A stretch of DNA of 64,000 nucleotides from Kondoa subrosea (lineage: Eukaryota): assembly GCA_039545335.1 (NCBI GenBank), contig BCIN01000005.1, forward strand, positions 310,001-374,000, read 5' to 3'. How positions within the stretch are numbered: position 1 is the stretch's first letter; each line of letters opens with the position of its first letter. Of this stretch, positions 26,811-52,900 are shown piece after piece. A program made the translations under genes and the position numbers. Under the pieces are notes generated by a model. The model had not been told where the DNA came from, made no database searches, and saw only the letters and a program-made list of their open reading frames with translations.

Positions 26811-27254
26811 AAGAAATTGTAGCTTCTGGGGTTCTTTGTATATAATTGTGCTTCGTGTATTCATTGGTACTGATCTTTGCGTGCATTCATGATATAGCAG
26901 AGCCCGTGTTTCTTTCCAAGAGCTTGACCTTGACCTTCTCTTCTGTGAACTTGGAATACCTTGGCTTCCGATCGTGCTATTGCAAAACTTGCTGCTTGAA
27001 TTGCCCATCTTCTCGGTGAGTTCTGGGTGCAAAACATCAGACAGCAAGCAGTACTTGATACTGTACTTGATCATCGACATAAGACATCACAGACTGGCGC
27101 GAAGGAGCTGATAACAGCAGTGCTTTGACTGAGCGCAATCGCAAACGAGACAAATTCGAAAACGCGGAAGACAACATAGGAAGAAACGAAGATAGGTCTA
27201 TAATCGGCAGACTGGCGAGAAATACAGCAAAGCAGCGCTACCTCGATCACGAGA

Positions 27255-28791
27255 AAATATGACTTTCACACCGAAACCAGCGAGAGCAGGAAAAGACAAA
27301 GAGAACGTCCAGCGCTGCAGCGACAATACCCGTAAATGCGATTGGATCTGGAGCATACCATCTGCCTGTGATACTAGATACCTGCTCGTCTTCACCGTTT
27401 GCTATCAAGACTCAAACCGAAATTTGAAGGCTCGCAGGGAGGTGTGATTCGAGTGGGAAGGATGACTCTTTCGCGTCAAGAGCTCAAGCGACGGGCTTTT
27501 CAAAAGGAGCAGCAGCAGAAGCAGGCCGAACAAGATAAATCTTGCGCTTTCCGTCGAGCTGAGCATCACTGGAAATCTCGCTTGGCTGCACCAGACCTAT
27601 CTGAAGCCTTCTCTCATGAGTCTGTGACATGGTTGAGCGAGGATTCTGGAAGCTGGAAGGGAAAAGAGCGAGACTATGCTGTTCAACGAGTGAAGCTCAA
27701 ATTGGATAGCCAAGCTATGGACCTTCTAGGCAGATGCGAGAATAGCGAAACTCAAGCCTACACGTTTGAAGATCTTCCAGGTGTGTTTTCTTCCTCTTCT
27801 TCCCCCTCCACAAGCTGAACGAGACCCCGATAGGCATCGTCTATATACCTTCATTACTCTCTTCTTCCGCTCAACGGTCACTTGTTGAATGTTGCTTGCT
27901 TGAAGGTCCAAGATCACCTAATATAACTTCTCTTGACCCGCATTACGATCTTCCGCTCGATGAAGGGCTCTGGCAGGCAAACGACCGAGATCCTCACTTA
28001 CCCGTCCAGAAGGTGGTCAACACTATTGCTCTAGATTCTAAACATCGAAAGCTAGTCGACCTCCCAGCCATTACGAAAGAGAACCTCGAGACGGAACGAG
28101 CGGAAGAAAGATTGCGAGATGTGAAAGCGAGCCAGAAACTCAACGGAGAGAATGTACATGTTCATGAAGTACTTGATAAGCTACGTTGGGCATCGATAGG
28201 ATTGAAATATCATGTTCGTCTATCTTTCCAGTGCTGTGATTGGCCTAATTTTATCTCAAGTGGGGAACGAAATCATACATGCTTGACTCGCCTGCGCCAG
28301 CCGTGCCTTCTCTCATATCGGACCTGTCGACCCGTATCGTTCAGAGCATACCTCCGGCTGAACTCACTCCTCCTTCGCCCGTGTGGAAGGACTATAAAGC
28401 AGAAGGAGGTCGGTTCCCTCTTCTGAGCTACGAATCGTACTGAGATGATCGCAATTCAGGCATCATCAACTTCTATAGACCAAGAGATACCCTTTGCGCG
28501 CATATAGATCATTCCGAAGCTTCTTTACGCCCTTTAATCTCTTTCTCACTTGGACTTAGTGCTATCTTCTTGGTCGGCGGAACAACAAGGGATGAGAGAC
28601 CATTACCTATCCTGCTGAGAAGTGGGGATGTCTTGATCATGAGTGGGAAAGGAAGAAGAGTGTTTCATGGTGTTCCAAGGATATTGGAAGAAGGTCGAGT
28701 TGAGGGATTGCAAGGAAAGATGGGAGAATGGATGGAGAAGAGACGGATCAACGTCAACGTCAGACAAGTTTGGCCTGGTGAAGAAGATTGA
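27255..28791 (+). repeat. Left arm of a ~1.5-kb inverted repeat (alkB gene plus ~200 bp upstream)
   Basis: Reverse-complement match to ~51380-52900 across exons, introns and promoter; similarity ends at the TGA stop. Confidence 0.95.
27462..28791 (+). CDS. AlkB-family 2OG-Fe(II) dioxygenase, ALKBH1-like (copy 1)
   Basis: LRWASIGLKYHWGTKSY, GIINFYRPRDTLCAHIDHSE (HxD), LRSGDVLIMSG..RRVFHGVPRI (H), RINVNVRQV (RxxxxxR); three introns. Confidence 0.92.
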
Positions 28792-29279
28792 CGGGACACA
28801 AATGTGAGTATGAGCAATCTCAAGCCGTGGGATGTTCTGATGCTTGCAGTTCGCTTTTCGGCCTCAGATTTGATCAGCGCAACGTCGTCCATGGTCTACA
28901 TAGCACAGCTTAATATCTATCTCGGCTGAGTCCGCACGTGCCAGATCCTAGGACATCCAAGTGAGTTACCTCGCACAAAACCGTTCGTTACTCTTATCAA
29001 CAGCATGCATCAGCTTCTACATCCTGCCTGCTCCCATCTCGAGGAATTGATGAGGCGCATCATAGCGTGAGAGATGGACGCCTAAACATGTGACGGAACG
29101 TGCAGAATACAGGATATACTGCTGTTGAGCTAGATCTCATCACAATCCGTTGTATAGCGTCGCGAGAATAGCGGAATGCAATTCTCGTGTTACAAAGCGT
29201 AAATCGAGTTTTTCAAAAGATTTTTTTCTCAGAGGTTGTTCTTCTAAACCAAAGCTTGACTTCTACCCTCACTCTCTTT

Positions 29280-32200
29280 ATGGTCTCATTGTCTGAAATG
29301 AGCGACTCTACGGCATCATCTGTCCTGCTTTCGAATCTCTTCGCTGCACCGTTCGCTTTTTGTCTTCTGGCTTGCATTAGCAGAAAGCTTATTGGCTCGT
29401 GATTAGGGATGGCGCTGCTGTAACAAAGTGTGCAGCTGAACTCTCAGCCTATGTCAAGAAGAATGGCCTCAATAGTCTGTCGGAAGAAGACATTCTGCCT
29501 CAGCTAGTCAAGGCAACAAAGTCAAAATCTGGTTATGAACGCGAATCAGCGCTCGTCGGTCTGTCTTTACTCTTTTCTCAATGCGGCTCAGCTGGCGGTG
29601 CCGACCCATATTTCTTGCCCCTTTGGCCTGATATTCTCGATCGTTTTCAAGAAGTCGGTAAAGGCGAAGTAGTCAAGGAAGCAGCGGAACAAGCAAGCAA
29701 ATCTCTACTTGCACTGGTCAAGCCAGAGGTCGTTATGCGATGTATGGAACTGATGTTCGGCTTACTGGACAACTCTGCGACGAAATGGAGAGTCAAGGTC
29801 GCTGCTCTGCAAACGATTTCTGTTCTTGTCAACAAAGGGCAATCACAAGTCGCTGATCATCTTGGCGAAATCATTCCAAAATTGACAAAGCACATGGGCG
29901 ATACCAAATCAGAAGTTAGTTTAGTGTTCTCATTCAAGTTCTCCTCCGGCTGATATCCTCAATCAGGTTTCCTCTGCCGCTGTCACAGCCACAAGCAAAG
30001 TCTGCGCTGTTCTTACCAACCCTGATGTTATTCCCTTCGTTCCTTTGATGGTTGAATGCATGGAAAGGTAAACTGAATGCATTCAGCTCTGTCCGCAGGC
30101 TCTGATCTATTTCATAGGCCCGATCGATTGAAAGAAGGTGTCAAAAAGCTCTCGGCCAACGTATGGGTTCGAGATGTCGATGCACCAACTTTAGCAGTCA
30201 TCGTTCCTCTTATTGTGCGTGCTTTGGGCGATCGTGATACGACTGTCCAGCGTCAAGTCGTTCTTCTTGTCGCAAACTTGTTCAAAATGGTTCGCTCGCC
30301 AGACCTAGCAGCAAAACATTACCAAAACCTCATTCCCGGTGTTACAAGAACCTACGAATCTGCTTCTTTCCCAGAACTTCGAGCTTTCGCCGCTGAAGCC
30401 AAAGCATCACTCGAAAACTCTATACTTGGAGCAGCTGAAAACGTTTCAGATGAAGTTGACCAGAAACAACTCGATGAGGATGAGAAAGCTGCATACGAAA
30501 TGTTGGCTAGCTTAGCGAAGAAAGAAACTGGCTCAGAAGTCTCTCAATTTACCTCTACGTCACTTTCTTGGGTAGCAGTCACTATCAGTCAGCTGGTGCG
30601 CAACAGAGATTTCGCAGATGAGACGTGGAATGCGATATATGTCGGTCCTTACCTTCGTCAATTTATGGATGAAAGCAAAGCACATGCTATGTCTGTTGAA
30701 GTTTTGAAGCGATGGATCGAAATTGATCGAGTGAGTCTTCTCGGCCTTTTCACTCCGATTCGTTTGTTGATGCTTTTCTGACAGATTCGCTCTATCGGAT
30801 CTGGCGAAGTGTATGATGGAAGCGATGGCGAAGAAGTTGTCAACATTCCTTTCTCTCTCGCTTACGGTGGTCTCTTGCTGCTGAATCACACTGTTCTCCG
30901 TCTTCTTCGTAAGTATCATTTAACCGCCCACTCGTTACGCCTTGACTAATACGAATGACAGGCGGTCATATCTATGGTGTCCTGGGACCCAACGGTGCAG
31001 GCAAATCTACTCTTCTCAAAGCCATCAACAGGAAGCAAATCGAAAACTTCCCTGAGAATTTATCTACTTTCTATGTCGAACACGATATCGATGCTAACGA
31101 AACTGGCGACACCTGTCACACCTTCTTGCTCAACGACAAGTTTGTCAAGGGAGTTGGCGCGACCGAGGAAAAGATCTTGGAAATCATGGAAGAGTGTGGT
31201 TTCACGAAAGAAAGAAGAGATCTTGGTGTCGGTCAGCTTTCAGGTGGTTGGAAGATGAGATTGGCTTTAGCTCGTGCTATGGTCTGCAATGCTGATATCC
31301 TTCTTCTTGGTAAGTTCTGCCATTATTAGGGGAATCAATCTAATAATATCGGTGATGATAGATGAGCCTACAAATCATTTGGATGTCGGATCCGTCGCTT
31401 GGTTGCAGGAGTATCTCAAGTCTCAGACTCATGTCACTGTCATGGTCGTCTCACACGACTCTGGTTTCCTTGACGCTATCTGTACTGATGTTGTTCACTA
31501 CGAGAACAAGCGTCTTGTTTACTACAAAGGTGCTCTTCATGAGTACGTCATGATCGAGCTTGGCCACAATAATCAATTGACGAGTGTTTTAGCTTCGTTG
31601 AGAAGCACCCTGCTGCTCGATCATACTATACTCTCGCCGCCTCTCAAATCAAATTCTCCTTCCCGCCTCCTGGTGCATTGACCGGTGTCAGGTCACAGAC
31701 TAGAGTGAGCAAATATCCCGTCTGCGTGCGTCTATTGCTGATGTTTGTTGTTTGCCTCGCAGACAATCTTGAAGATGTCGGTCAGTAGCTAGCCTTCATA
31801 CCTTGTGCTCTTGCTCATGATCTGGAACAGAATTGCACCTTCACATATCCTGGACGTGACAAGCCTTCGCTACACAACGTCACTGCTGCCGTTTCTCTTT
31901 CATCCCGTGTTGGTATCGGTGAGTCGAAGCATTCCTAGCCTCGAGCTGCTCTTATGTGTATAACAGTCGGACCTAACGGTGCCGGAAAATCAACTCTCAT
32001 CAAGCTCCTGACTGGTGAAACCCTACCTGACACTGGTAAAGTCGAGAAGCATCCTAACTTGCGTCTCGCATATATTGCTCAGTGAGTATAGTCCCACAAG
32101 TATGGTGTCATCGCTCACACGTTCTGCCCAGACACGCCTTCCATCATATCGAACAGCATCTAGAGAAATCTGCTACCCAATACATCAAATGGCGATATGC

Positions 32201-33417
32201 AGATGGTCACGATAAAGAACTCGCTGAGAAAGCTTCACGCAAGATGTCTGAAGAAGAAAGACGCATCCTTGAAACACCTATTGAAGCCAAGACTGGTGAA
32301 AAGCGAAGGATAGAAATGATCATTGGTCGACAGAAGCTCAAGAAGAGTTTCACATATGAAATCAAATGGTTGAATCTGAATCACAATGTCGGTTTTGCCC
32401 GAGTGTTAACACATCTGTTCTAACTGGTTCTCGCTTCTGCTTATAGCAAAACGCATGGATCCCTCGTGAACGTTTGATTGAGCTTGGTTTCAGCAAGATT
32501 GTCCAACAATTCGATGACTTCGAGTCCTCTCGGGAAGGTTCCGGATCCAGAGAACTATCTGGTGTTGCTGTCCGCGAGCATCTCGAAGCTCTTGGTCTCG
32601 ATGGCAACATTGCCGAATACAACGAAATGTCCGGTTTGTCAGGCGGACAAAAAGTCAAGGTCGTCATTGCTGCTGCTCTATGGGCCAAGCCCCAAGTCCT
32701 TATTCTGGACGAGCCGTAAGTATACTGCCTACTGTTGATGAATAACGTCTGATGCGTTGGCTTGCCCACAGTACGAATTTCTTGGATCGAGATGCTCTGG
32801 GTGGTCTGGCTACTGCCATTCACAACTGGGCCGGTGCTTTCTTGTGAGTATAGCTTCTCTAAATGCGACTGCAGCCATTGAGTACCGCTTGCAGATGTAT
32901 TTCACACAACATGGAATTCGTTGGCGCTTTATGTCCTGAGATTTGGGAAGTCGATAACGGACAACTTACACATAAGGGTAAAGTTGGTGTGACCGAAGAT
33001 GCTTTCGAAGATATGGCAGCCAAGATTGATTCGAGAGAAAATTCTCGTGCATCTACTCCAGCTGTTTCGAAAGGAGCTGCTCGTATGGCAGCGAAAATGG
33101 CAGCAAGGACGCCTGGAAAAGGTTCACCTGGTGCTAGTGCGGGGAATACACCTGGGACGAGCGCGGCCAATACACCTGCTGGTTCGGGCGACGAAGGAGC
33201 TGCAGCAGTTGATCCAACAGCACCCAAAGTCGCAAAGAAGAAGCTCACAAGGAAACAAGTCAAGGAGAGAGAAGAGAGGAGACGTCTGCGTACTGTGCGG
33301 TGGTTGTCCAACAGTGAAAAGGGCGTGCCGAGAGAGCCAGACACAGGTGAGTTTCGCATTTTTCAGCCAAGTTGAACATAATCTGATCTCTCATCAATTC
33401 CAGACTCGGATGCGTAG
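29280..33417 (+). CDS. Elongation factor 3 family ABC ATPase (eEF3/New1 group)
   Basis: HEAT region ([16 protein letters not shown]), ABC1 GPNGAGKST / [14 protein letters not shown] / [12 protein letters not shown]2 with a chromodomain insertion ([15 protein letters not shown]), [10 protein letters not shown], basic tail [17 protein letters not shown]. Confidence 0.93.
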
Positions 33418-34084
33418 AAGATCATATATACACTTTCAACACTACAACTCAGGGCATAATCGTTTTTCTTTCATTGGGATCCTTTGTAATTTTCAAGTAC
33501 AGTACACTTTTTAGAGTTTCTTTGCATTTGTTGCATTCAATAGATATGTTATTTCATTGATCACGGGAAGAAAAGAGACTTGTATGGCATCATATGGAAC
33601 TGCTCGCATGTACAATATAAAAAATGCAGCCGTTGAGTAAGAATCTTCCAATCTTGGTCTCCCTCGCTTAGAGTGGAGCTGGCAACACACAAAAGAGAAG
33701 CAATGACCGAAGCCACGCTCTCTCAAGACGTATAAGCTTCAAAAGGCGAGGTTGATATATTTATTGGGAGAAAAGAGACACTCGAGCGAAAATTGCAAGT
33801 GACACGAGATTTTTGCCTCCGTGCTTGTTCATAGATGGCGACGACGCAGCGTGGAAAGACTGCACCTTGTCCTATATGACATACCAAAGCAATCCTCACG
33901 CCGAAATGACGCGCTTGAAATCCAAACACAGGAGGTCAACTCTTCTAATGATTGATTGCATTTGCTCTCGCTCTTGTTCCTGTCCTCTATCTTGTGGCAT
34001 TTGATCTGCTCGAGTGATACCAGAGCGTTGTGTGGCCTCTAGATTGGAAGTGCCTGGTTCGCTGCCTCCTTTTCTATTATACCG

Positions 34085-37000
34085 ATGCGACGAAACGAGC
34101 CTCTTTATTCGCTTCCTGTTCTCGACCAAACTCCAGTCGGATCTTCTCTTCCCTTGACTTTGAACTCAGAGGACGGATCATCTCTATCTCAGCAGCTTCA
34201 GCGCTTGTTGCTCGCCCGATCTGCAATGGAACCGAGCCAGAATGCAAACAAGGCTACAGGAAGACCTCTGCCTGTTCCTCCAGCTAAGGACACCAAGATC
34301 AAGACCAATTGGCCTGCAACTTATGGACCTTCAGTTTCTAGAATCCAATACGCGCCAAACAGGACAGGTACTTTGAATCCAAACACAGCTGGCCTACCAC
34401 TTGGAGCACATAGGAATCCTATACCTTTCACACAGCCGCAAAGTCATTGGCCGCCTACACCAGGGGTGAATCAGCCTACGGCCTATTTTCCACCTCAACC
34501 TCCAAGTCAAATGACTGAAACTGCTTTACCTATTCCTCAGAATTCTAGTCTCTTCCTTCATTCTGGCTTCTACAGTATCCTCGGTTTGGCAAATGCAGTC
34601 ACCCAATATCCATCTAGAGCAACTCCAGCTTCTTCACCTCGATTAGGTCAAGAAGGTGGCTACTTTGCTGCTCTGCAAACAAAAGACAGAACAGCAGCAA
34701 TCAACGAACCTCAGGTAGTCCGCAAGAATCCTCCAATGTCTTCTCCTGCTGCATATAATTCACCAGATAAGCAAAAGAAGGATAACAGGCGAATAAGCGT
34801 TGATATGATTAGTCGGCCTCAAGGCTTTGCGTCAGTCCGCTCATTGGCGAATATGGGTTTCGCTAATCCTCTTGCAGTCATTTGTGCCATGCAAGTGATG
34901 CGGATCAGGCAGCTCAGATTCTCGGCAGATGGCAAAGTGACGGTCAAGGCAAATTAGCTAGTAGGTTGATGTGCTTGAATGATATACGGATTCTGACTAT
35001 TCTACAGGGCCTTCTTGGGTAATACCGATTAAAGAAGCAGCTCGAGCCAAAGCTAGAGCACATGGAGTAGCTCAAGTCCAAGCTAACATGGCCGAAGATC
35101 GTGCAGCTCCCCTCAAAATCGTCAACCCTTCTGATTCAATGCTTTATGGAGAGCGGCCGACTGAATCGACCTTATCCAACGTGGCTGTCAATGGCGAACA
35201 CGAAGATGAAGAAGAAATCGAAGAGCCTCTAACGCCGACGCTTCTGTCTCCATCACCTCAACTTCAGCGTATGGATACCTCAGATACGATCATCATCCGC
35301 AATCCTCGTTCCCGTCCTTCTTTACCTACATCTTCACCCAGCTCAAACTCTTTCAAAGATTACGAACCGCCAACCGGATCAGAGCAACCTGCGTTACCTT
35401 TCAAGCCATCGTTAGAAACCCTGGAACGCTCAGCGTCAGCTGCCATCTATTTCGAACAACTTTATCATGGACTGTTGAAAAGGCCTAAAGCGAGAGATCA
35501 ACGTTTGAAGCAATTGGAAGCAGGTGTAGCTCATTTAAATCTAGCGGATAGGACAGCGGCGAAACAAGCTTGGATTTCAGTGGAAACGGAACATTTGCGT
35601 GACTTGAGAACGAGAGTCAATGTTGGTTCCTTTGCCAAAATCAAGACCGTCGGTCATGGTGGTGAGTGTCTTGTACTACGGCGGTGAGGCCTTATGATGC
35701 TCACTCCGTTTCGATATAGCTTTTGGAGTTGTCAATCTGGTCAAAGAGAAGAGCTCTGGTCAATTATACGCAATGAAGCAACTTCGAAAAGCAGATATGT
35801 TGCGGAAAGGTCAAGAAGGTCATGTTCGAGCCGAAAGAGATTTCATGACTCAAGCTAGCGAGACTTCAAGATGGATCGTTCGGTTGGCGTACAGTTTTCA
35901 AGATGTTGATCACCTTTACCTCATCATGGAATGGATGTCGGGCGGTGATTTGCTCAACCTGCTTATCGAACGAGATGTGTTTGAGGAATCTTTTGCTCGA
36001 TTCTATGTTGCGGAAATGATTTTGGCTATTGACGAGGCACACAACATGGGTACGTTGCTTGATTTTGCGATCGGCCTTGCCTTTACAAGCTGTTGTTTCA
36101 GGCTTTATTCATCGAGATATCAAGCCAGACAACTTTCTCTTCGATTCCAGTGGTGCGTGCAGTCCGATAAGCGGCTTATCTCTCTGATGATTTCGTTCAA
36201 AAGGTCATCTCAAGTTGAGCGACTTTGGATTGGCCACTGACTTTCATTGGTATGTTCTCATCACTCGTTGATATATCAAGCTCAGAAGAAATTAGGGCGC
36301 ATGATGGCGCTTATTATGATCAACAACGCAAAGCACTCTTACGCAAACATGGTATTGATCTGGAAGACGGAGATTACGGTACTGTCAGGCGCAGAGATCG
36401 CTTCGATTTTGAGGGAGATGAGAGTCTTCAGCCGAACACCATTTTGACCTGGAGAGATCGGAATCGTAAGAAGCTCGCGTATTCAGTGGTGGGCACAGTG
36501 AGTGCATCTCTGTTGTTCCTCAGCTTATGGCTGAACCTGCGGACTAGAACAACTACATGGCGCCCGTAAGCAAATGTCAAATTTATAGGCAGGAGGGCTA
36601 TTCTCATCTTTATGCAGGAGGTTCTCCGCGGTCAAGGTTATCTTGCAAGCTGCGATTGGTGGTCTGCTGGCTGTATAACGTTTGAGATGCTTGTCCGTTA
36701 TTCCCCTCTGTATTCATTCTCCGGACTGATTTGGAAATACAGTACGGATATCCACCTTTCGTGTCCAAGTCTCGACATGTCACGAGGCAGAAGATCTTGA
36801 ATTGGCGCCAATCCCTCAAGTTCCCGCCGAAGCCTAAAGTTTCTCGCGAAGGACAAGACTTCATAGAGCGTCTTATCTGCGAAAGAGAAGACAGACTTGG
36901 CAGTGAGATGCCTCATAGCGTCTCCAGACCAAACTCGCAAATCGTGATGCAACGAAGAGGTACCAATCCATGGGCGGCAGCTAGCGGACCTTTCAAAGGC

Positions 37001-37674
37001 GGTGCTGATCAGATCAAGGTTCGCCGTTTACACATTCACGTAGCGTTTTATGCTAATATAGCTTGCATTTAGACTCATTGTAGGCCAAACCATTACTCTA
37101 CGTCATGCTGGCACTGAACTTCTTGTAGCTTGGTTTCGAGGCATTGATTTTGCTACTATTCACACGCAAACACCGCCCTTCATTCCTGAACTCAAAGAAG
37201 CAGGCGATACTCGTTATTTCGAAGATGACATTGATCCAAATCCGCTTGCTGCTCCGAATGGAGAAGATCCCGAAGCTACTAAAGATCCCATGCTGCGAGA
37301 CAGAAATCAAGGCAAACATCTGCTGGATGTCCGCAAGTCGTTGGCTTTTGTCGGCTAGTGAGCCCAGGCTCCGCTCACTCGTGACACTCGGGCTGATAAT
37401 CTGTGCAGTACATATCGTAAACCTAAACAGGTAATTTTTTCGCTACGACCTATGAGTGTGCGTTCTGAAAATTCGTACAGCTTATTGATCCACGCAATGG
37501 ACGGGTCAATATCGAAGCTACGTGGCGTGAGCAACCAGAAGAAGACGATAGGGGCCGCAGCATGGCTAGAAAACCAACGGGTAGGTCATTCGCTCTCTTT
37601 TGATACAAGCTCATGCAAGATCCAGGTTCAGCCATTCGGTCGTTGAGTGTCTGTGAGTGCACGAAGTACTTATA
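34085..37674 (+). CDS. AGC/NDR-family Ser/Thr kinase (Cbk1/Orb6/COT1-related) with an N-terminal CRIB-like motif; 3' end approximate
   Basis: NTR-like region ETEHLRDLRTR, GHGAFGVV, YAMKQLRKADM, HVRAERD, HRDIKPDN, DFGLAT, AYSVVGTNNYMAPEV, hydrophobic motif LAFVGYTY. Confidence 0.92.
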
Positions 37675-37967
37675 GCCAATTCGAAAATTGCTGACGAGAC
37701 ATCACGATTTCGACAGAACTTTGAAATTGCTATCTCCATGTCTGATCAATGCATATGAAATAATTACTACAACCACGAGTCTAGTTCATGTATAAACTTA
37801 GCGAATATTCACACTTTTGAAATCAATTGCTTCTGGAATCCCTCCACAGATGTATGCTCTCTCTCTCAGCTGATCCTTCCACGAACGCCCCTCAACCAAG
37901 AACATTAACACATCTTAGTAATAGCACTGACATAAACCGTCCCTTGAACGCAACAACCTTGCAATAC

Positions 37968-39858: not shown

Positions 39859-40403
39859 GCTTGTTGCTGTGCGGTAATGAGAATGTTGACAGAGAAAGGC
39901 CAAATATAGGAAGTTTGTGTGATGAAAGCTAAGTCGTGTATGGCAGCTGTGTTTTGGACAAGAGCAAGAGCAGAAGGAATATCTTGAGCTCCTCTGTAAT
40001 AATGGAAGCAGCTAGCGTGCTTTGTAACCGGCGAAAGTCTTCTGATTGACTCCCTGAAGCATGTGTTCTTTCTGGGCGGATTTCGAGCTTCCAAATCCTT
40101 CTGCTGATCGGTTTCGAAACGGTGTACTGACTTATGCCAGTGATGCAGAAAAAAGAGGGCAAAGGGAACAGTGGAGCACTAATTGCAGTAAATGTCACCA
40201 GTCTCGACCGTCGAGGAACCCTTTTTGGTTTGTCTTTGAGCGGGATTGACACCGCTGTGTTCGGGCGCCGTTTTCAGGCTAGCAAAGCTCTTATAGTTTG
40301 CAATGACACAATAGCTCTATGTACATGATGCAGCAGAAAATGCAGTAGATGTGGAATGAATGCTAAGGAATGCTAAGGAATGGAGACCCGTATTACTGGG
40401 TTA

Positions 40404-42410
40404 TCACTGTTTCTGAGCGAGAAGTATCGAGCGGTGAAGCTCAGATAGCATCACATCACTCCAGAGGACTGTTGCAGGCATGCCAGGGTCTCCATGTAGT
40501 CTGTTGGGGAAAATTTTAAGTTAGAAACTTTCGTCACATAAGCGGGCATTGAAAATCCTCACCGATCGACTGGAAGATCACGAACGCAAGCGATCAGCCC
40601 CGAACATCAATTTCATACAACAATGACATACCTTGATGGGCTTCATGGCCGAGCATCAACGTTCCCCAAGCTGTGCGAAAATAGAAATTTAGCTTTTGAT
40701 GCAGTGTTCAAAAGGGACAAAGAAACTCACGATTGAAACGGTAAGACTTGAGACTGGTTTCTTGCTGATTACGCGCTTCTGCAGTAGCAGTTGGGGGAAT
40801 GACTACGGATCTGGCAACTTGATCTAGCTGAAGAACGCGACTGGTAGCAAAATGGGCTGGAATTGCTTTTGCTTTGGGAGTGACACCAATTTGTTCCTGC
40901 TATAGGAGTGAGCATCAAAGCTCAGACAAGCTCAGAAGCACTTACCTTGAAGTATTGCAATTCTGCAGCTTGATCTTGAGGGAAATGAATAGATCGCCAC
41001 ATTTTGCCTTTTGCTTGAGGGAAACTTCGACGAACGCTCTTCAAGACTTGTTCCATTCGAGCTCTATACCAATTCATTCTTTCTTGATCAACTGGATCTG
41101 TTGTGCTTCGTCCAATGCCAACATCTTCTTCAGCCCATTTCATCAAGTCGTAAGCGCCTGAAGAAACTTCAACAAAGTCTGGCGCGTTGGGTCGACCAGA
41201 TGCAACAAGAGAGCGAACAAAAGGCATGACATGTTGCTTCAGACGGTCTTCAAATAGTCCAGGGCCGCTATATGATTTGCTCTTGCGCCAGAAATCGTCT
41301 TCATCTAAGCCATAGTGGAAGACACTGACAAGCTAATCACCAACACGAATCAGCCAGCACCTTGATTAAAAGACTTGAACACTCACCAAGAAGTCGACCT
41401 CTGGAATATAGCAAGCTCTTGGCATTGTAGCTTCTTTAGCATCATGGCCTGTCATACGAACAGGAACACTCTTCTTTCTTCTCGTGCCAGCAGGTGCCCA
41501 ATCTTTCACATCCCTCACGATCTCTGCTTCCCGACCCATCAATTGACAGAATTGTTCCACATGTTCTCGATCAATCGTATCGCCAATAGTCAAGACCGTC
41601 TTGTTCCTCAACCATTCTAAATCGTTCAGATCTCCATTTCGAAGTTGGGAAAGGAAATGAGGAGGTGAGCAAGATTTGTCAAAAGGTTGCCAGCGTGTTC
41701 CATCGGGATTGACATGATCCACTTTGAGCGCACCGAAAGCGGAGTAAGGATCGCAAGCGACATAATGAGGAAGGTTGTGTTGAGCGATGATCTTATTCAA
41801 TGCGCCGAATCTGTTTGTTTAATGAGCTTGTACACTTTCGGCTTAAATCACCAAAGAAAAAACTGACTCTGGAATGGTTACGGGAGAATCTTTGAAGTAG
41901 TACAGAAGACCGGCCACAAAGGTGAAGAACGTGAGAAAGGAAATGAGCAGTCTTGATCTTCTTTTGTGCAAAAGACAACGTGGAAATATTAGCCTAATTT
42001 CCCGCAACGTGAGTAAACCAGACTGACCTTCTCTCGGTTCTATCTTGCCAGGCGTAGTCTATACTACTTGATCGTTCCCTCCACATGGGTTGTTGTGAGA
42101 TTGGCGGTGTCAAACTCATGCTTCCCATCTTGCGAAAGTAACCCATCTTTTGTGTAAAGGAAGGGTAGGCTTCTTCAGGGCTTGGAGGTGCCTTTGTGGA
42201 ATATCTGCTTGGAGAAGGACGCTCCACAGGTGACCCACCATTACTACGGGTCGATTGCTGAGATTGGTTCTGCTGAAGGAAAGCAGGATTGGTGAAAGAG
42301 AAAGCAGAAGCATGACCACGAATAGCAAAAGGATCTGCCGGTGCCGTGAATGAAGGCTGAGAGCTATGCGTAGCAGAGTAGGACACTGAACGTCTCTTGA
42401 TGTTACTCAT
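40404..42410 (-). CDS. CAP64/CAS3-like SGNH/PC-esterase-fold glycan-modifying protein
   Basis: WLRNKTVLTIGDTIDREHVEQFC, RACYIPEVDF, VFHYGLD, PDFVEVSSGAYDL, WGTLMLGH and a spliced DxxH (VDRLH); family assignment from memory. Confidence 0.65.
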
Positions 42411-42777
42411 GACTTTGATGTACTTTGAAATTTGAGGAAAGGGATGACAAAGAAAACTAGACAGGTAATGAACCTCCAAGGGACCAGCAGGCAAGAAGGC
42501 AAGTCGGGACAATTACAGCGCAACAAGGTACGAATCAGGCAACAGGCGGGACAATCTTTGCCAAATGCGTCCAAAAGCGAGGAATGGCTGAATCAGCATC
42601 CAATTTAATCAGGACTTTTGGTGATTGTCTCAGACTCTACTGAGTGATACGAGTCTAGCAGCAGTAGATTCCGAAGGGCGAGCCGCGTCGAGAAGCGTGA
42701 ATGAATATTTTTCACATGATCACTGGTGCTTGACAAGCAGCGAGCAATCTCACAATACCACTTAGCATAGCCTGAGG

Positions 42778-44590
42778 ATGAGCCGAAAGATGCTCGATGC
42801 GTATACCCCTAGTCTCATCAAGCTTAAGCCTGGCTTCCTATTGGCAGCAACAGCTTCGACTGGACCTTTGATGTTACAAAGTGCTTGTGATGTCTATTGG
42901 TCAGGAGTACACGGCTAAGAGCTGCTTCGATAGATACCCTGTCATTAGATCGACTGCACATTGCCTTGATTCAAATTCTTCTCCTCTTTCTTGCAAATCT
43001 GTTCGCGAAAGTTTGGGCTGGGTCACCAGCCATTGAAGCTTCTCCTTCGTCTGTCTCAGCATCCTCCTCTTCCGTTAGAGCAGTTCCTCCGAAACCAATA
43101 GTAGTGGATCGACCTGTACCTGTGCCGATTCCTGGACCAAGTGTGACAAAGGAGATCGTCATAAGTAAGTGCTTGTTCGGACCTGTCCTCCGTATATTGA
43201 TGGACTTTTGTAGAACCAAACAAGTCTATCAAAACAACTATCGTCAGGCAAGAGCATCCAAGCTATTCTGACAAGTTCTTGGACGGAGTCTTGCATCGCT
43301 TTCTAACGTTCGCCGACCCCGGTGCACTTTCTGTACTACCTTCAGTGGAGAACGAATTACCAGAAACAGATCGTATAGCAATATCTGATTGGATTCGCTT
43401 ATTTGAAAACGATATTCTTACCGTCAGCTCCCATCCAACTCTTAATGGCTTATATTCCATCACTACTATCTTCCCATCTCTTTCTCTTCGATCTTTATGG
43501 GAATTGATGCTGTCGATCGAATCAAGAACGGACTGGGATAATAGTTGCGAGCAGACTCAGCACTTGGAAGATATTGGACCGCTTTGTTCAAACAGTGCTT
43601 CGGTTTCAGCCAGACAAGCTTCAGTCAGCTATTTAGGTTGGTGATACTTCTTTGAGTCAGCTTGCACGATCTTGATGTGTTTGAACAGCCCTCAAATCCA
43701 TGTTTCCGATCAAACCCAGAGACATGGTCCTTCTTTCCGTTCTCGCTCGACTGGAACCTGTTGAAATAAATGGCAAATTGTGTCAAAGACTCGTTTCAGC
43801 TACCACAAGCGTGGATCACCCTTTGAAACCTGCTCAATCGGGTTATCAACGGATGATGATTTCCAATTCTGGATTTCTGGCAGAAGAGTTGCCTGAAGGT
43901 GGATGTAGATTGATGCAGGTATCTGACCTATCAGGTTTAGGTAGCTGGAGTGAGTTCTACTTCATTGTTGAACATGTAGAAATGTTGATCTGGACATTGA
44001 ATAGTTCCACAAAAGATCCTGAACACTATTACTCAGAAAGTCTTACCCAAGTCATTGGTAGAGCTAGGTATCGCTGCGGAGAAGATGACTTATTCGCCCG
44101 AAAGACAAGCATTGAAGGGCGATAAGTGGTATCCTCCGCTGTTAACAAACATTTACACTTCAATATCAGTAAATGATGAACTAGAAGACTCATCTTCATC
44201 TTCTGGTTCAGACGTAGACGAACCAGAAGGAGAAAAGAGAACAGCAGCGGAAGATCGAGCGGTAGCTTTATTGGAAGAACAATTACGAACAACAAATCAA
44301 CGATTAGCTCAATTAGAGAAGGAGAAATCTACTACGACCAATGCTGCTCTTTCGGCGGTAGCTTTGCAATCTAAGAACAAGAGATGGTTCAGCTGGTTAT
44401 GGCCAACTCAGAACAAAGCGAAACAAGATCCTGGTTTAGTGTTACGAACAACTTTCGCCAGTGCTATCGGAGGTGCCACTGGCGCAGCTGCAGGTGAGAG
44501 CTTTCTCAATGTTTTTTCAAAGATAAGCCTTGATTCGCTTTATAGTAATTGCTTTCGCCATCGTTTGGGCTCGAAGACGCTTGTAGATTA
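42778..44590 (+). CDS. START/SRPBCC lipid-binding domain membrane protein
   Basis: RTDWDNSCE, MFPIKPRDMVLLS, VSATTSVDHP, LMQVSDLSGLGSWVP; hydrophobic segments at both ends; start approximate. Confidence 0.78.
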
Positions 44591-45080
44591 AATTTACGCA
44601 ACTCGTTATTGTAGATGTGCATTGTAGACTGTACGATAGCTGTTTGCTTAATGCCAAGAATAAACTCGCCCATACCGGCAGAGACAATCGTACTCTTCGC
44701 CCAAAGTTTATAGCGGGACCAGCCTTATCGAGAGAAGACCAACCCAAAAAAATACAAGATGGCTATAGATCAAGCGCCTACTAAGAAGGAACATGGAGGC
44801 ATCTTTGATGATCTGAAGCGTACTTTCTCGCCCAACCGAGTCGGAGGGCGATCTTCAGGTTCAAGAGAAAGAGGTCCTGCTGATAAAGAGGGTTAGTTGG
44901 ACTGCTTCCCGCTCTGATTCCTGTCTATGTTCTCTGTGTGTGCTATGGATGCTATGCTGTCTACATGGACTGCAGCCCGACGGCTGTCTGTCCTTATCTT
45001 CTCAACATTAAATGTCGCAAGATTTCCAAAAGCTTATCACTCAGTCTGTATGCTTTGTAGAGCAAAGAGGTCGTCAACCT

Positions 45081-45567
45081 ATGGTCTCTACCGGTCGAGG
45101 TGGTGCTGGGAACTTGCAGAAAACGGTAAAGCTCTGTCCTGTTGCCAATAGTCTAATGAGTCACTGAACTTCGTTACGTTGTGTGATCACAATAGAATGC
45201 CGATGGTGATCGAGAAGACTCAGATGAAGAACGTAGAGCTGTATCTATCGAACGCTCTCGAAGCAAGAGTCGTCAGCGTGGTACATCTCACGTCAGAACT
45301 GGTCGTGGAGGTATTGCTTGTCATGGACACTCGGATCGGCACTTTGACTCAGCATGCATGTACAGGCAATGGAAATATTGGCGATGTGCCAATGGAAACT
45401 GAAGAAGAACGAGCTCGGAACAAGCAGTTTGAAGCTAGCGTAGATGCAAAGTATACCGCTGCTGAAGCAAATGCCGTGCATTCTGGTGGAAGAGGAGGTG
45501 CGTAGTCAAGATTAGGTCACACATTCAAATACTTAAGATCGTGTCAGGCGCTGGCAATATTCGCTAA
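45081..45567 (+). CDS. Small DUF3602-like protein with (T/G)GRGG(A/I)GN repeats
   Basis: Four exons give MVSTGRGGAGN...RTGRGGIGNI...SGGRGGAGNIR*. Confidence 0.8.
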
Positions 45568-46142
45568 GCTTCATGCATGAGCAGACGAAGGATGGTTGAT
45601 ATATCAAAGGGTTTTGTTAGCTAGTAATGTGTCTGTGCTGTTCGGATTGATGATATAGAGCTCTTGTCGTATTCCCTGATCGTAACTTTACTCCTATTCC
45701 GTAATGCACCCCTCTTTGCGCAAGACACAAATCGCTAACCGACTCTTCCGAAACTCGATCTTCATCACTTCTCTCTGCAAGAACGAGTGATACCTGTCCG
45801 GCCCTGTTCACGGGACACACACAGAGCCGACACTCCCTTGATGCGAGCATAATCGACGGTCTTTGCCCAGAAAGCGTTTAGACCGAACCTCGACCCTCGA
45901 ATCTCAATCTACCTACTTTCGACAAACGACTTCCCCTCGCGTGCTGGCGAGGCATTGCACCACACTGTGTTCAGGCCGTCTACTCAAAGCCTGACATACA
46001 AAAGCAAGACACAGTATTCTAACGCTCTTGCCATTTCGTAGCAAACAAAGGCAAACCTGCGCATAGCAAATCGGAGCTCTGGCCGTGCAAGCATAGCAGC
46101 ATCTCTCAAACAAGATTTTAGTCTCTGTATACCTATAGCAAC

Positions 46143-49100
46143 ATGTCTGGATCTCCTCAAACGCCGGCGAATGATGTGGATCGTCAATTGCCCGATGGCC
46201 TCCCTTTGCAAAGTCCTGCTCTGTCTACCGCTAGCTACAAATCATTCGATTCATACAACGACACATCCACAAGTAGCTCTCAACGCGTTTATCCTATACG
46301 AAGTGTAATCGGTGCTGGCCGATCTGGTGGCCAACCTCCAGCTTCTAACAGCAGCGACGGTCGACGCAATTCTTCATCACCCACAACCACGTTTGGTTCC
46401 TTTTCTGACTTCCCCGGAGGTACTCGACCGCCTCATCATCGAAGCGAATCCATGGCTTCCATTACCGCTACTACTTCTACCTCTGATCCAGGTAGACATC
46501 AAGGTTCTTCTCGACAAGCTACAGCAAGTCAGTCGCCTAGTCGCGCTTCTTCGGAACAGAGGTCATCCCTTTCAAACACTGGTGGATCCTCCTCACCTCG
46601 ACCCGGAATTTCACCAACTCAATCTCAACAATCTGAAAACTCAAAGACCACAACTCACGATACTACACCTACCCCTAGCGAATCTCATAAGGCACCTTTA
46701 TCGAATGGCCCACCACCTGGTGATTTGGATGAACCTGCTGAATCCGATATCATCGAACGAACCCGAAAATTACGGAGAACAGCTCAAAGGGAATTAGCGG
46801 ATGCAGATTCAAAAGCGTCAACTGCTTCATTTGCTTCTCAGCAAGAACAACTCATGACTGCTAGATTCGAACATACTCCTACTCCTGATGGTCATATGAT
46901 TATTGTTGGACGAGAAGGAGAACTCAAGTCTTGCGAAGAGGAGGTAAATTTCTTTTGATGCGCCTTGAATTTATGGTTGGAGCTCAATCTGATTGACTTT
47001 TCACTTTTAGCCAATTCATATACCTGGAGCGGTTCAAGCTTGGGGCGTTTTGATCGCTGTTGAAATGGTCGACGGTCGATTCCCAGTGAAGCAGGTTTCA
47101 GAGGTGAGTGTCCTTACATCTGCTATACATAACGATAGCTGATCAGTTTCGGCAGAACTCTGGTCATCTGCTAGGATTACCGCCAAGCTACCTTTTCCAT
47201 CAAGAATGCTTTACAGATATCCTTACTCCCGAAGAAGCTGATCTTTTCCGTGATGCAATTGACGCTGCGCAAGAAGAAGAGCTCTTGAAAGAGAGTGGAC
47301 CGCATCACTTTGATCTATCGGGAGAAGGTGTTCCAGGCAGTGGATTGGAAGGTCGCGATAGTATCATGGAGTGGTCGTGTTGGTGTGTGGTACATCGTCC
47401 ATCACCAGTCACAAGACCAGAACTTTACTTGGTCGAATTCGAACTTCAAGATGATCAACTCAATCCACCTTATACCGAATTGCAGGAGTTACCAAATGAA
47501 GATGAGCGAACAGGTCTGGCTGGTGAACCGTATGCGCCAACAGCAGAGGATCTTTTCGAATCTACCGTTTCCTCTGCCAAACCTTTACGAACAATGACTA
47601 GCGCTCGACGACCTGGGCCAAGAAGAAAAAGAAATATGAATGTCTTCCAGATGTTGAACCACGTCACAGATCAATTGGCTAAAGCTGACAGTCTACATGC
47701 ATGTTTGAAGATGTGTGTTTCGGTCATCAAAGATTTAACTGGATACGATCGAGTTATGATTTACCAAGTTAGTCCTGTGCATTTTGTCCTGCTACGTTCC
47801 TGAGGCTGATGATCATACTTGTGTAGTTCGATGAATCATGGAACGGTCAAGTCGTTGCTGAATTGGTCGACTGGTCAAGAACACGGGATCTCTACCGGGG
47901 TCTTCATTTCCCATCTACTGATATTCCAGCTCAAGCAAGAGAACTATACAAGATCAACAGAGTACGGCTACTGTATGATCGTGATCAGCCTACCGCCCGA
48001 ATGGTTTGCATCGACCGGAAAGAACTCGATACCCCACTCGACATGTCTTACACTACTTTACGAGCCATGAGTCCTATACATATCAAGTACCTCGCCAACA
48101 TGGGTGTTCGTGCTTCGGGATCTATATCTATCACCGCCTTCGGAACTCTGTGGGGTTTGATTTCATGCCATACATATGGTCGGTATGGTATGAGAGTACC
48201 GAGTCCAATTCGCCAGCTCTGCCGAATCTTGGGCGAATCCATTTCGCGGAACATTGAGCGATTGACATACGCGGAACGACTTCACTCTCGCAAAATGCTC
48301 AACTCGATGCCAAGCGACAAAAATCCTAACGGTTATCTCATTGCAAATGCGTCAGACTTATTATCGCTCTTCGATGCTGAATTTGGTATCCTCTCTATCG
48401 GCGACGAGTCAAAACTCATTGGTACTCTCGACAATACTCAAGAAGCTTTGGCTGTTGTTCATTACCTTCGTGACTGCAGATTTGAGTAGGTTGCTTTGAA
48501 TATGGCTGCTGTCGAGCTTGCTAAAGCGCATTTATAGGAACATCCAAGTGTCACAAGATATTACACAAGATTACCCGGATCTCAATTACCCTGGCGGCTT
48601 CAAATCGATAGCTGGCTTGCTTTCTGTGCCCTTGTCCGATTCTGGCAAAGACTTCATCGCCTTGTTCAGACGTGGTCAAACCAGACATGTGCACTGGGTA
48701 TGTGTTTTATGTTCTGCCGCAGACTTCCGTAAATGAACAATTTGAAATTGTAGGCTGGAAATCCTTACGATAAGATTTTGAAAGAACATGCTTCTGGAGC
48801 GTCAGACCTTGAACCTCGTACTTCTTTCAAAATGTGGTCCGAAGCTATTGTCGGCAAGGCAAAAGCTTGGACTGACGATCAGCAAGAGACCGCCTCGGTG
48901 CTATGTCTTGTATATGGAAAATTTATCGAGGTCTGGCGCCAGAAAGAAACTGCTTTAAAGACAAGTCGCTTGACCAATCTCCTGCTGTCTAACGCGAGTC
49001 ATGAAGGTATGTCTGCTCACTTCTAGTTTCGGAATGGCACTTACATAAGAATCAGTTCGAACACCCTTGAATGCTATAGTCAACTATCTAGTGCGTCGGT

Positions 49101-51102
49101 TCTGAACTTACAATGCAACTCGTTCTGAATTGGTTCTGCAGGAATTGGCTCTAGATGGCTCGCTTGACGGCGATACGCGAGAAGCTCTCACCAAGAGTTA
49201 CGTCGCTTCTAAATCTCTTGTTCATGTCATCAACGACTTGCTGGTATGAATTGTTTGCTAGTATTTATTAAATATCTGACTAATAGACTTGGTAGGATCT
49301 TACACGGATAGAGCAAGGCAAATCATTGTTCATTGAAGATCCTTTGGAATTGTCATCTGCTATAGAAGAAGCATCTGCAATTCACAAAGCCGAAGCCGAT
49401 CGCAAGGGTGTCGAATTTGTCATTCAGGCGGATGATCCTGAAGGCCGACACTTAGTGATGGGCGATCGAGCACGTCTCATGCAAGTGCTAGGCAATCTCA
49501 TCAGCAATGCCGTCGAGCATACTCGCAGCGGTGTAGTGACTGTTCAATGGGGCCAAACCGCTGCAGGCAGCTTGGTTGTTGCCCCAGACGCGTTGGTCTA
49601 CCAGATTACTGTTAGAGATACTGGGTAAGTTCACATCGTCGTCGAATTGATCATTCGCTCAGTCCAAATTTAGTGATGGCATACCACCACATGCTCTCGA
49701 CGCTATCTTCCGCGATTTCGAAGAAGTTGCTTCAACTGACCAACCATTACCCGAAGAAGAAAACGTTCCGCAAAACACCCTCGGTCTTGGCTTGGCTGTG
49801 GTCGCCCGTATTACTCGCAATATGGGAGGCCAATTGCGAGCAGACTCTATACTGGGAGAAGGGTCTACCTTCTCTGTTATTCTGCCTTTCGCACGTGCTC
49901 CGACTCCGTTACCCTCGCCTGCAGTTTCTGCTGATACCAAGTCTATGGAACAAAACTCTATCAGCACAAGAAATAGCGATGAACATTCAAGGGCACTCAA
50001 GCGCTCCTCTTCTCTAGACAGTACTGATTCCAAAGGATCCTACGGCTCCAAAGTTTCGACTACCTCATCTGGCCGATCCGAAATCGATAGCTTGGTTGAT
50101 GCAATGACTTTTAGTGAAGCGCCCGGCATCACTAACTCTGGCAAAGTTCAACCTCCTTCCATCACTCGCCGCTCTTCTACCTTACACAGCAGCTCAAACG
50201 CCAATCGGATCAGAAATGATGGATCCGACGATGGACGGTCAATAAGTTCTCCGCGTCTTCCCTCGCGAACTCCTACTTCTCCAAAACCAAAGTCACCTCC
50301 AATTTCACCTCCTTCTTCCCCTAAGCAAAGCACATCTGCCGCAAAATCGCAAAGGAGAAGGCAATCGTCTGCAAATCAGACGACACCAACTATGAGCAGA
50401 AAAGATTCCGTTACGAAGGAGGAGCCAACTTCGTCTCGTGATAGTGGAACTGCTCCTGTTGCCGGTCCTTCTAAGACACCTTCACTTCGAGTACTCGTAG
50501 TCGAAGATGATCCCATAAATGTAAGACTTCCCCTTTGGCATTAAAACCGAGCTGAAACTGTTTATAGCGGGCCATCATTGGCAAGAAGCTACAAAAAGAA
50601 GGCCACACCGTGCAAATGACGGTTCACGGCGGTGAAGGCGTTCGCTACTTTGAAAAAGATCCAAAGATCGACCTTATATTGATGGACTTACAGTAAGTGT
50701 GCCTTTTGCCGTGCTCCACTCTTTATCTCAATCTTTCGTTTCACAGAATGCCTATCTGCGATGGTCGAACAGCAACGGAACGCATCCGACGAATCGAAGC
50801 TCAGGCCAGAGACGACCAACCCTTCACTCCTCCAGCACCTCGAGTGCCGATAGTGGCAGTATCTGCGTCGTTGCATGAAGATCACCGTCAAGGCATTATC
50901 AAATGCGGGATGGATGGATGGCTCTTGAAACCCTTGACATCGGATCGTCTGACAGCTATTCTTGCTGGTGTGAGGAGTAGCAGAGCACGCAAGCAGGAGT
51001 TGTATCAGTGAGTGTACTTGGGTTCCTCATGAGCAATGACTAATATGATTTTCCAGACCTGGCAAATTCCACCGAGGTGGTTGGTTTACCACGGAATTAT
51101 AA
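46143..51102 (+). CDS. Fungal phytochrome (PAS-GAF-PHY-HisKA-HATPase-REC), FphA/PHY1-like
   Basis: Chromophore Cys motif SCEEEPIHIPGAVQ, GYDRVMIYQFD, FPSTDIPAQARELY, LRAMSPIHIKYL, PRTSF tongue, HEVRTPLN, NLISNA, GLGLAVV, VLVVEDDPIN, ILMDLQMP. Confidence 0.96.
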
Positions 51103-51379
51103 GGCTTGTGGCACTTTCGTAGAATTGTAAGCATAGCTTGTAAATAGACTGTGGGCATTGGGACTTGTGCGAATAAGATACGCGGGCTGCATCACATCAT
51201 TATATTGACACAATGCATCTGTCGCCATTCACCGCCTCCGATAGATTCAGACTTCCTAAGTACAACACCAAGGCTTCGAGGCTTGCAATCTACGGAGGTT
51301 GAAATGAGTTCTTCCTAGACGGAACCGGACATTCAGGAACCTTTCTTTCGAAGGTATACAGCACACACTTACATACTAT

Positions 51380-52708
51380 TCAATCTTCCTCACCAGGCCA
51401 AACTTGTCTGACGTTGACGTTGATCCGTCTCTTCTCCATCCATTCTTCCATCTTTCCTTGCGATCCCTCAACTCGACCTTCTTCCAATATCCTTGGAACA
51501 CCATGAAACACTCTTCTTCCTTTTCCACTCATGATCAAGACATCTCCACTTCTCAGCAGAATAGGTAATGGTTGTTCATCCCTTGTTGTTCCGCCGACCA
51601 AGAAGATAGCACTAAGGCCAAGTGAGAAAGAAATCAAAGGTCGTAAAGAAGCTTCAGAATGGTCTATATGGGCGCAAAGGGTATCTTTTGGTCTATAGAA
51701 GTTGATGATGCCTGAATTGCGATCATCTCAGTACGATTCGTAGCTCAGAAGAGGGAACCGACCTCCTTCTGCTTTATAGTCCTTCCACACGGGCGAAGGA
51801 GGAGTGAGTTCAGCCCAAGGTATGCTCTGAACGATACGGGTCGACAGGTCCGATATGAGAGAAGGCACGGCTGGCGCAGGCGAGTCAAGCATGTATGATT
51901 TCGTTCCCCACTTGAGATAAAATTAGGCCAATCACAGCACTGGAAAGATAGACGAACATGATATTTCAATCCTATCGATGCCCATCGCAGCTTATCAAGT
52001 ACTTCATGAATAGGTACATTCTCTCCGTTGAGTTTCTGGCTCGCTTTCACATCTCGCAATCTTTCTTCCGCTCGTTCCGTCTCGAGGTTCTCTTTCGTAA
52101 TGGCTGGTAAATCGACTAGCTTTCGGTGTGTAGAATCTAGAGCAATAGTGTTGACCACCTTCTGAACGGGTAAGTGAGGATCTCGCTCGTTTGCCTGCCA
52201 AAGCCCTTCATCAAGCGGAAGATCGTAATGCGGGTCAAGAGAAGTCATGTTAGGCGATTTTGGACCTTCAAGCAAGCAGCATTCAACTAGTGACCGTTGA
52301 GCGGAAGAAGAGAGTAATGATGGTATATACAGGATGCCTGTCGAGATCTCGTTCAGCTTGCGGACAGGAAAAAGAGGAAGAAAACACACCTGGAAGGTCT
52401 TCAAACGTGTAGGCTTGACTTTCGCTACTCTCGGATCTGCCTAGAAGGTCCATAGCTTGCCTATCCAATTTGAGTTTCACTCGTTGAACAGCATAGTCTC
52501 GCTCTTTTCCCTTCCAGCTTCCACAATCCTGGCTCAACCATGTAACAGACTCATGAGAGAAGGCTTCAGATAGGTCCGGTGCAGCTAAGCGAGATTTCCA
52601 GTGATGCTCAGCTCGACGGAAAGCGCAAGATTGATCTTGTTCGGCCTGCTTCTGCTGCTGTTCCTTTTGCAAAGCCCGTCGCTTGAGCTCTTGACGCGAT
52701 AGAGTCAT
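51380..52708 (-). CDS. AlkB-family dioxygenase, ALKBH1-like (copy 2, inverted)
   Basis: Same exon structure and catalytic motifs as 27462-28791; I saw no stop or frameshift. Confidence 0.92.
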
Positions 52709-52900
52709 CCTTTCGCGCGCTCCACACCTCCCTTCGAGCCTTCGAATTTCGGTTTTGAGTCGTTGACAGCAAACGGTCAACACGAGCAGGTATCTGGTTT
52801 CACAGGCAGATGATATGCTTCAGATCCAATCGCATATACGGGTATTACGGCTTCTCTCTGTCCTTTCCTGCTCTCGCTCGTTTCGGTGCAAGACTCGTTT
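51380..52900 (-). repeat. Right arm of the ~1.5-kb inverted repeat
   Basis: Reverse complement of ~27255-28791. Confidence 0.95.

Follow-up and report, generated by a model that had tools for sequence, protein, structure and literature searches.

The 64,000-nucleotide (nt) window of Kondoa subrosea DNA analyzed here (contig BCIN01000005.1 of assembly GCA_039545335.1, called C5 below; C5:310001-374000) carries two ALKBH1-like alkB genes that face each other across 22,588 nt of single-copy DNA. We consider this arrangement to be probably the retained scar of an inversion or duplication, whose two arms have undergone gene conversion and could invert rarely, as a by-product, and not a switch of the mating-type kind. 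Positions are those of the window unless a contig is named, and the genome compared comprises 18.9 Mb in 27 contigs.

Two intact alkB genes form inverted arms

Copy A (27462-28791, plus strand; exons 27462-27780, 27834-28213, 28261-28408, and 28460-28791) and copy B (51380-52708, minus strand; exons 52708-52390, 52337-51958, 51910-51763, and 51711-51380) each encode a predicted ALKBH1-like 2-oxoglutarate (2OG)-Fe(II) dioxygenase of 392 amino acids. The introns of copy A (27781-27833, 28214-28260, and 28409-28459) have counterparts at the same positions in copy B, and this one set of introns leaves both genes open, without internal stops. The two proteins differ at 20 of 392 residues, and the HxD, H, and RxNxNxR motifs are intact in both. 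Thus, the preliminary description of this DNA, which saw two apparently intact, facing ALKBH1-like genes, is borne out by translation and motifs. Its statement that all introns are shared is right for their positions and for introns 2 and 3, which are identical, but not for the sequence of intron 1, which differs at 8 of 53 nt. At the DNA level, the genome has no match besides copies A and B; six other PF13532 matches are weaker and lie elsewhere. With the last exon as the query, human ALKBH1 comes out closest among solved structures (E 5e-20), followed by Escherichia coli AlkB (about 3e-12) and ALKBH8 (0.03). Basidiomycete homologues, several of them named ALKBH1 or abh1, are 45-60% identical over the same exon, and no protein match to it exceeded 61% identity among the candidates that passed (144 of 390 and 53 of 67). 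The synonymous divergence (dS) between the copies is 0.131 and the nonsynonymous divergence (dN) 0.0255, giving a dN/dS of 0.195; both copies have been kept under purifying selection.

The arms extend beyond the genes on one side only. A repeat finder assembled the inverted pair 27256-28791 (plus) and 52901-51380 (minus) from four collinear inverted pairs, which places the arms bracketing the interval where the preliminary description had put them. Local alignment over 27269-28791 yields 1424 identical columns out of 1507 (94.5%), with a longest perfect run of 167 nt, and a single blastn high-scoring segment pair (HSP) links 27042-28791 to 53111-51380. On the left, a promoter and 5' untranslated region (UTR) zone at 27255-27461 (plus; 164 of 191 aligned nt identical) is preceded by an old, faint zone at 27042-27254 (plus), which is about 64% identical over its length to 53111-52902 by the blastn HSP and a shuffle test. 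The promoter and faint zones of the right arm together occupy 52709-53111 (minus), as delimited by the repeat finder, blastn, and the shuffle test. The homology out to 27042/53111 scores 82, a value matched by none of 500 shuffles and none of 462 other windows. The roughly 200 bp of shared promoter noted earlier is therefore homologous, but it understates the extent of the faint homology. A still longer extension, to about 26815/53330, was dropped, its distal part alone being matched by 146 of 500 shuffles. Upstream of the arms, we detected no reading frame conserved between the copies, no Rfam match, and no transfer RNA (tRNA) by ARAGORN, which may miss tRNAs split by unusual introns.

On the 3' side, no homology between the copies was found past the stop codons, where 145 of 500 shuffles match the score, in agreement with the earlier observation that similarity stops at the stop codon. 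Both stops are followed by intron-like stretches with a GTRAGT donor and an AG end: 46 nt at 28804-28849 (plus), beginning 12 nt past the stop of copy A, and 58 nt at 51372-51315 (minus), beginning 7 nt past that of copy B. GTRAGT occurs in 1.1% of 25-nt windows. These stretches possibly represent a shared ancestral 3' UTR intron, though the 3' flanks do not align. Within the interval, a direct repeat at 43534/49823 (35 nt, 74%) was set aside as probably due to chance.

Identity between the arms is patchy

Similarity between the arms is highest in a core at 28187-28483 (plus), where 295 of 297 nt are identical to 51984-51688. This core, which appears to have been homogenised recently, spans introns 2 and 3 and contains identical runs of 167 and 128 nt. 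The core is 99.3% identical and the remainder of the gene 93.2% and 94.5%; identity falls to 79% over the 200 nt upstream and to 64% from there out to 27042/53111, and it is at background beyond that limit and after the stop. Synonymous divergence is likewise uneven: dS is 0.164 before 28064 and 0.202 over the remainder of the last exon, whereas the core, with about 51 synonymous sites, has none that differs (dS 0). Introns 2 and 3 together show no differences in 98 nt, as against seven substitutions and one indel in the 53 nt of intron 1 (Fisher p 1.6e-4). Of 20,000 permutations, 10 produced a 297-nt span with two or fewer differences; merging clustered differences gave a frequency of 0.11%. 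A divergence of the kind left by repeat-induced point mutation (RIP) was considered and rejected, the differences comprising 39 transitions and 24 transversions without strong bias.

We infer that this patchy identity marks occasional gene conversion between old duplicates. Since dS remains 0.16-0.20 outside the core, such conversion would be rare. Because the arms have recently exchanged sequence, it is physically plausible for a crossover to invert the interval and exchange the alkB 3' parts, although conversion by itself is no proof that a crossover ever happened.

The inverted pair is not an assembly artefact

The assembly was compared over 23500-32500 with contigs of two sequencing runs, X1 and X2, both from one sample. 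Depth in X1 and X2, respectively, is 138.9 and 53.6 on the left flank, 142.6 and 51.9 in the interval, and 142 and 56.1 on the right-flank contig, and it rises over the arms, onto which the contigs of A and B both align. The single-copy, potentially invertible interval (28792-51379, 22,588 nt) is one contig of 22,668 nt in both runs, each end of which enters the last 40 nt of an arm, on opposite strands. The A and B alleles are carried by separate flank contigs, and of 77 rows of differing letters, all of the 40 listed are B alleles of the assembly. The contigs tie the alleles at the 5' end of the arms to the flanks, and those in the last 40 nt to the interval, without joining the two.

The inverted pair is real and not a haplotype artefact. 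An origin of the pattern in misassembly, through either a second haplotype or a collapsed repeat, is barely credible. Identical introns can indeed come from repeat collapse, and the data are contigs of one sample. However, read depth, which the preliminary description had named as the check for misassembly, is single copy inside the interval and on both flanks, and the alleles segregate onto separate flank contigs. Moreover, the collapsed contigs have a depth of 207.3 (X1) and 83.8 (X2), where 213.1 and 85.0 are expected if the 167-nt run is identical in the two copies and 181.0 and 71.0 if it differs. Because this depth fits true identity, the identical tract is real and assembler collapse is unlikely.

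A relative shares the junction of copy B

No windows resembling this one turned up in relatives, but seven metagenome alkB loci were found. One of them, L011, comes from a close relative, its last exon being 84% identical; the other six are 36-44% identical and have no neighbor in common with the window. In L011, alkB lies tail-to-tail with a phytochrome gene, as copy B does here. The L011 spacer scores 77 against the 3' side of copy B (the best of 300 shuffles being 33) and 22 against that of copy A. Synonymous difference between L011 and either copy is 0.66-0.69, compared with 0.17 between A and B at the same sites. Because L011 shares both junction and spacer with copy B, the alkB-phytochrome junction is old. 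As to the direction of conversion, the sites that L011 covers lie in the last exon, outside the core, and match A in six cases, B in three, and neither in six. None of the seven metagenome loci has the junction of copy A. L011 informs on the 3' neighbor only, and it fits an origin by inversion and by plain inverted copying alike.

The L011 phytochrome frame is uninterrupted, and L011 therefore reads as spliced complementary DNA (cDNA). Over L011:1-5194, the phytochrome cDNA continues into the antisense of the alkB last exon, which would fit either convergent transcripts that overlap or an extended 3' UTR.

Further inverted gene pairs lie on the same contig

We surveyed 864 kb (C5 10,001-674,000 and C2 500,001-700,000) for merged pairs within one contig that were 800 nt or longer and 85% or more identical. 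Eight pairs emerged. Five are inverted, all on C5, with gaps of 9.9, 16.5, 22.6, 49.5, and 50.1 kb; the three direct pairs have gaps of 7 nt, 3.5 kb, and 3.8 kb. With the alkB pair included, the inverted pairs number five in 664 kb of C5, or about one per 130 kb. One of the others carries a GNAT gene, presumably GNA1-like, at C5 224452-227725 and 244242-247518: this inverted pair is 3.3 kb long, 88% identical, and separated by 16.5 kb. Like the alkB pair, it has a homogeneous stretch, a 304-nt identical run within a 90% core (0 of 5000 permutations), together with a faint 700-nt tail.

The remaining pairs are of several kinds. An inward-facing pair of 1.3 kb at 88% identity, without Pfam match, begins within the window at 61979-63248 (C5 371979-373248 versus 384440-383157), and its 9.9-kb interval holds methyltransferase, Frag1, DNAJC11, and SURF4 genes. 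Two more inverted pairs of about 90% identity, the copies of each 50 kb apart, lie at C5 130470-132456 and 182524-184511, with a third copy at 19-21 kb (75%), and at C5 432554-436363 and 485875-490005. A mobile origin is conceivable for both. The latter pair includes a reading frame that is kinase-like by motif. Young direct duplications at C5 453267-468290 and 511052-517150, about 95% identical and in parts 100%, stand beside short runs of N and might represent either tandem arrays or overlaps left by the assembly. The sampled part of C5 has one large gap, about 6.8 kb of N within C5 634001-654000 and some 280 kb from the locus, which is a possible repeat block or centromere.

Mating-type genes lie elsewhere

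The preliminary description had likened the interval to the mating-type inversions of Ogataea and Komagataella. This analogy is not supported. No mating genes were found on C5: all 10 STE3 matches are on C1 and C4, and the one Homeobox_KN match, from two candidates scored, is on C11. Among the 101 of 145 window open reading frames (ORFs) that were scanned, no STE3, homeobox, transposon, or recombinase family was found. The locus is not telomeric, lying 337-363 kb into a 1.51-Mb contig and flanked by genes, and in a crude ORF-coverage profile (5-kb bins, C5 210-474 kb) neither arm adjoins a gene-poor block. The two alkB genes face inward, no promoter crosses an arm, and the promoters of all seven inner genes lie inside the interval. 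A crossover in the arms would therefore leave the promoters and neighbors of the seven genes unchanged and would yield two whole chimeric alkB genes. Finally, the layout is common on this contig.

Separately, the STE3 matches include four distinct STE3-like loci (C1:2428923, C1:2745580, C4:50728-51777, and C4:1439329-1440384) in an apparently haploid genome. The two on C4 lie near opposite parts of that contig, and the set of four bears on the question of homothallism.

Genes of the interval and its flanks

The seven inner genes are broadly as first named, with ends that are approximate except for the phytochrome. An eEF3-like ABC-F gene at 29280-33514 (plus) matches the Pfam HEAT_EF3_N, ABC, and chromo domains. 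It is one of several such genes in the genome, not the sole one; a site on C4 fits the eEF3 N-terminal model better, and a search gave nine matches, of which the one that carries a species name, Mixia osmundae at 50%, is no more than a slight pointer to Pucciniomycotina. A protein kinase gene follows at 34043-37720 (plus; Pfam Pkinase), presumably NDR/Cbk1-like by motif, and then a C2H2 zinc-finger gene at 38196-39800 (minus; Pfam). The gene at 40400-42560 (minus) has a weak PC-Esterase match (E 0.039), and we take it to be CAP64-like; this name and "NDR" are assumed labels, in contrast to the others, which rest on Pfam matches. A START-domain gene lies at 42770-44590 (plus; Pfam), and a DUF3602 gene at 44760-45567 (plus) scores 21.1 bits against a cut-off of 21. 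The phytochrome at 46143-51011 (plus) has Pfam GAF, PHY, histidine kinase ATPase (HATPase), and receiver domains and is tail-to-tail with alkB copy B.

Outside the arms, an intron-rich gene for an LtrA-family membrane protein at 54400-56600, below the cut-off, is divergent from copy B. Two tandem cytochrome P450 genes at about 15400-19700 are 57-65% identical at the DNA level. In both runs, contigs from two or more other places match a 33-nt stretch at 24661-24693, with unrelated sequence around it; the stretch is perhaps a fragment of a gene family.

Origin of the pair and competing explanations

The history that we favor would begin with the inverted duplication, 23 kb away, of an ALKBH1-like gene and at least 420 nt of the DNA upstream of it; the simplest source of such a copy would be an inversion of the interval through a staggered break, which would have left the copy as a by-product. 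The right copy would have retained the ancestral tail-to-tail junction with the phytochrome, leaving the left copy with another 3' neighbor. Non-allelic homologous recombination would now and then pair the arms and transfer tracts of about 300 nt from one to the other. A minority of these pairings might resolve as crossovers, inverting 22.6 kb. Such a flip would be nearly silent, since it would reshuffle only 20 amino-acid differences and the alkB 3' UTRs. The pair would then be no dedicated cassette; rather, the chromosome as a whole would tend to leave inverted gene duplicates 10-50 kb apart, and this would be one of them. The alternative already raised in the preliminary description, that the duplication is the scar of a past inversion, fits these data well.

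Several points weigh against this history. None of the loci found shows the ancestral order as an outgroup would, and plain inverted copying would lead to the same arrangement as an inversion. Both copies are intact, unlike the duplicates in Ranz 2007 (PMC1885836), most of which decayed, a difference that would seem to call for a selective reason. Homology ending exactly at the stop is rare for a random break and suggests instead the erosion of a once longer repeat, as do the GTRAGT donor-like motifs after both stops. In the survey, the 200 kb of C2 contained no inverted pair, and the excess of inverted over direct pairs shifts with the cut-off, from five versus none above 5 kb to five versus two above 3 kb. 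The permutation statistics for the core were picked after the tract had been seen. Finally, X1 and X2 represent one sample and may be the assembly's own source.

Another view is that alkB underwent inverted duplicative transposition, with copy A inserted between its left neighbor and the eEF3-like gene and the interval never inverted. We regard this as possible, though on the unlikely side. The ancestral 3' neighbor of copy B agrees with it, and we see no sign that the interval ever changed orientation. However, it leaves unexplained why all five non-tandem local pairs are inverted, unless direct pairs have been purged, as might be expected because recombination between them deletes the intervening genes. 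A further view holds that this is a locus of the type of the flip/flop (FF) region on Saccharomyces chromosome XIV: an old alkB pair shared with relatives and kept similar by selection, with both orientations segregating among strains through recurrent re-inversion. Size and anatomy match that 24-kb region, the conversion tract and age gradient are of the kind expected, and the L011 contig starts inside alkB, as assemblies do at repeats. Yet the arms here are 1.5 kb long and 94.5% identical, and no perfect run exceeds 167 nt, versus 4.2 kb at 97.6% throughout in S288C (PMC9731477), and the dS outside the core shows conversion to be rare. Furthermore, just one of the seven metagenome loci is a close relative, none has the A-type junction, and the break in L011 may reflect low coverage. 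We therefore judge recurrent re-inversion of this type to be unlikely.

A regulated flip-flop switch altering the expression of inner genes, such as the phytochrome or the eEF3-like gene, is very improbable. It would be compatible with a crossover that keeps both alkB genes whole and with the signalling genes in the interval (kinase, C2H2 factor, and phytochrome). Against it stand the lack of STE3 and homeobox genes on C5, of a nearby telomere, and of a gene-poor block by either arm; the lack of any promoter crossing an arm and of a recombinase among the scanned ORFs; the divergence of the arms; and the many similar pairs on C5. A retained scar with occasional conversion remains the reading that we prefer.

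Implications

By itself, this locus matters little, since there are known cases of partly homogenised inverted gene pairs around a block of genes, and a flip would have next to no effect. It is of use as a clean example that can be tested by polymerase chain reaction (PCR), with short arms, many diagnostic sites, both copies intact, and many such pairs on the same contig. A literature search, with subscription papers mostly outside its reach, returned no inverted ALKBH1 pair and no such repeats in Pucciniomycotina. A bolder idea, which we advance tentatively and think more apt to fail than to hold, is a chromosome of many independently flippable blocks, bounded by conversion-refreshed, gene-carrying inverted repeats, with orientations polymorphic among strains. 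If true, the FF process would operate at dozens of loci and drive gene-order turnover and gene duplication together. Should several pairs show mixed orientations, the rate at which conversion turns into inversion would become directly measurable, and the role of inversions as a main source of fungal gene copies could be addressed.

Comparison with known systems

Like Schizosaccharomyces pombe Abh1 and other ALKBH1-type dioxygenases, the two proteins belong to PF13532 and have human ALKBH1 as their best solved match. Unlike other ALKBH1/Abh1-type genes, they are present as a near-identical inverted pair; their dioxygenase activity is predicted from the sequence.

In the FF1/FF2 flip/flop mating-type switching of Ogataea and Komagataella, about 20 kb is likewise flanked by one gene-derived inverted repeat (Krassowski 2019, PMC6692504; PMC5720833), and flip/flop mating-type systems shift MAT genes to a repression site (PMC6692504). 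Here, in contrast, we found neither MAT genes nor a repression site, centromere position aside.

The staggered-break duplications of Ranz 2007 (PMC1885836) offer a closer precedent. In that report, inverted duplications accompany 17 of 29 inversions, with a mean identity of about 88% and lengths up to about 1.9 kb, and in 12 cases the duplication is at one end only. The alkB pair is likewise an inverted copy of a unique gene at the ends of a segment, below 1.9 kb, and likewise involves duplication at one end only. There, outgroups prove the inversion and most copies have decayed; here, both copies are intact and later conversion is likely to have occurred.

The nearest likeness is to the Saccharomyces FF region, which the locus appears to resemble in anatomy and in local homogenisation. 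As set out in Salzberg 2022 (PMC9731477), about 24 kb of ordinary genes there also lie between inverted repeats of whole genes plus promoters, and gene conversion also acts between the arms, as it seems to do locally in the 297-nt core here. That region has a 4.2-kb repeat at 97.6%, lies near a centromere, and occurs in both orientations in at least four species. In K. subrosea, the arm is 1.5-1.75 kb, 94.5% identical, patchy, and limited to a single ALKBH1-like gene; many such pairs exist, and the data come from one sample. The same paper describes the Saccharomyces FF region as the only common case, attributes it to conversion with occasional crossover (about 4% of conversions being cited as so resolved), and reports that orientation stayed constant through about 53,800 mitoses and 950 meioses. 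Because the arms here are shorter and more diverged, flipping should be rarer still. In both systems, inversion, if any, would be expected as a by-product without obvious phenotype.

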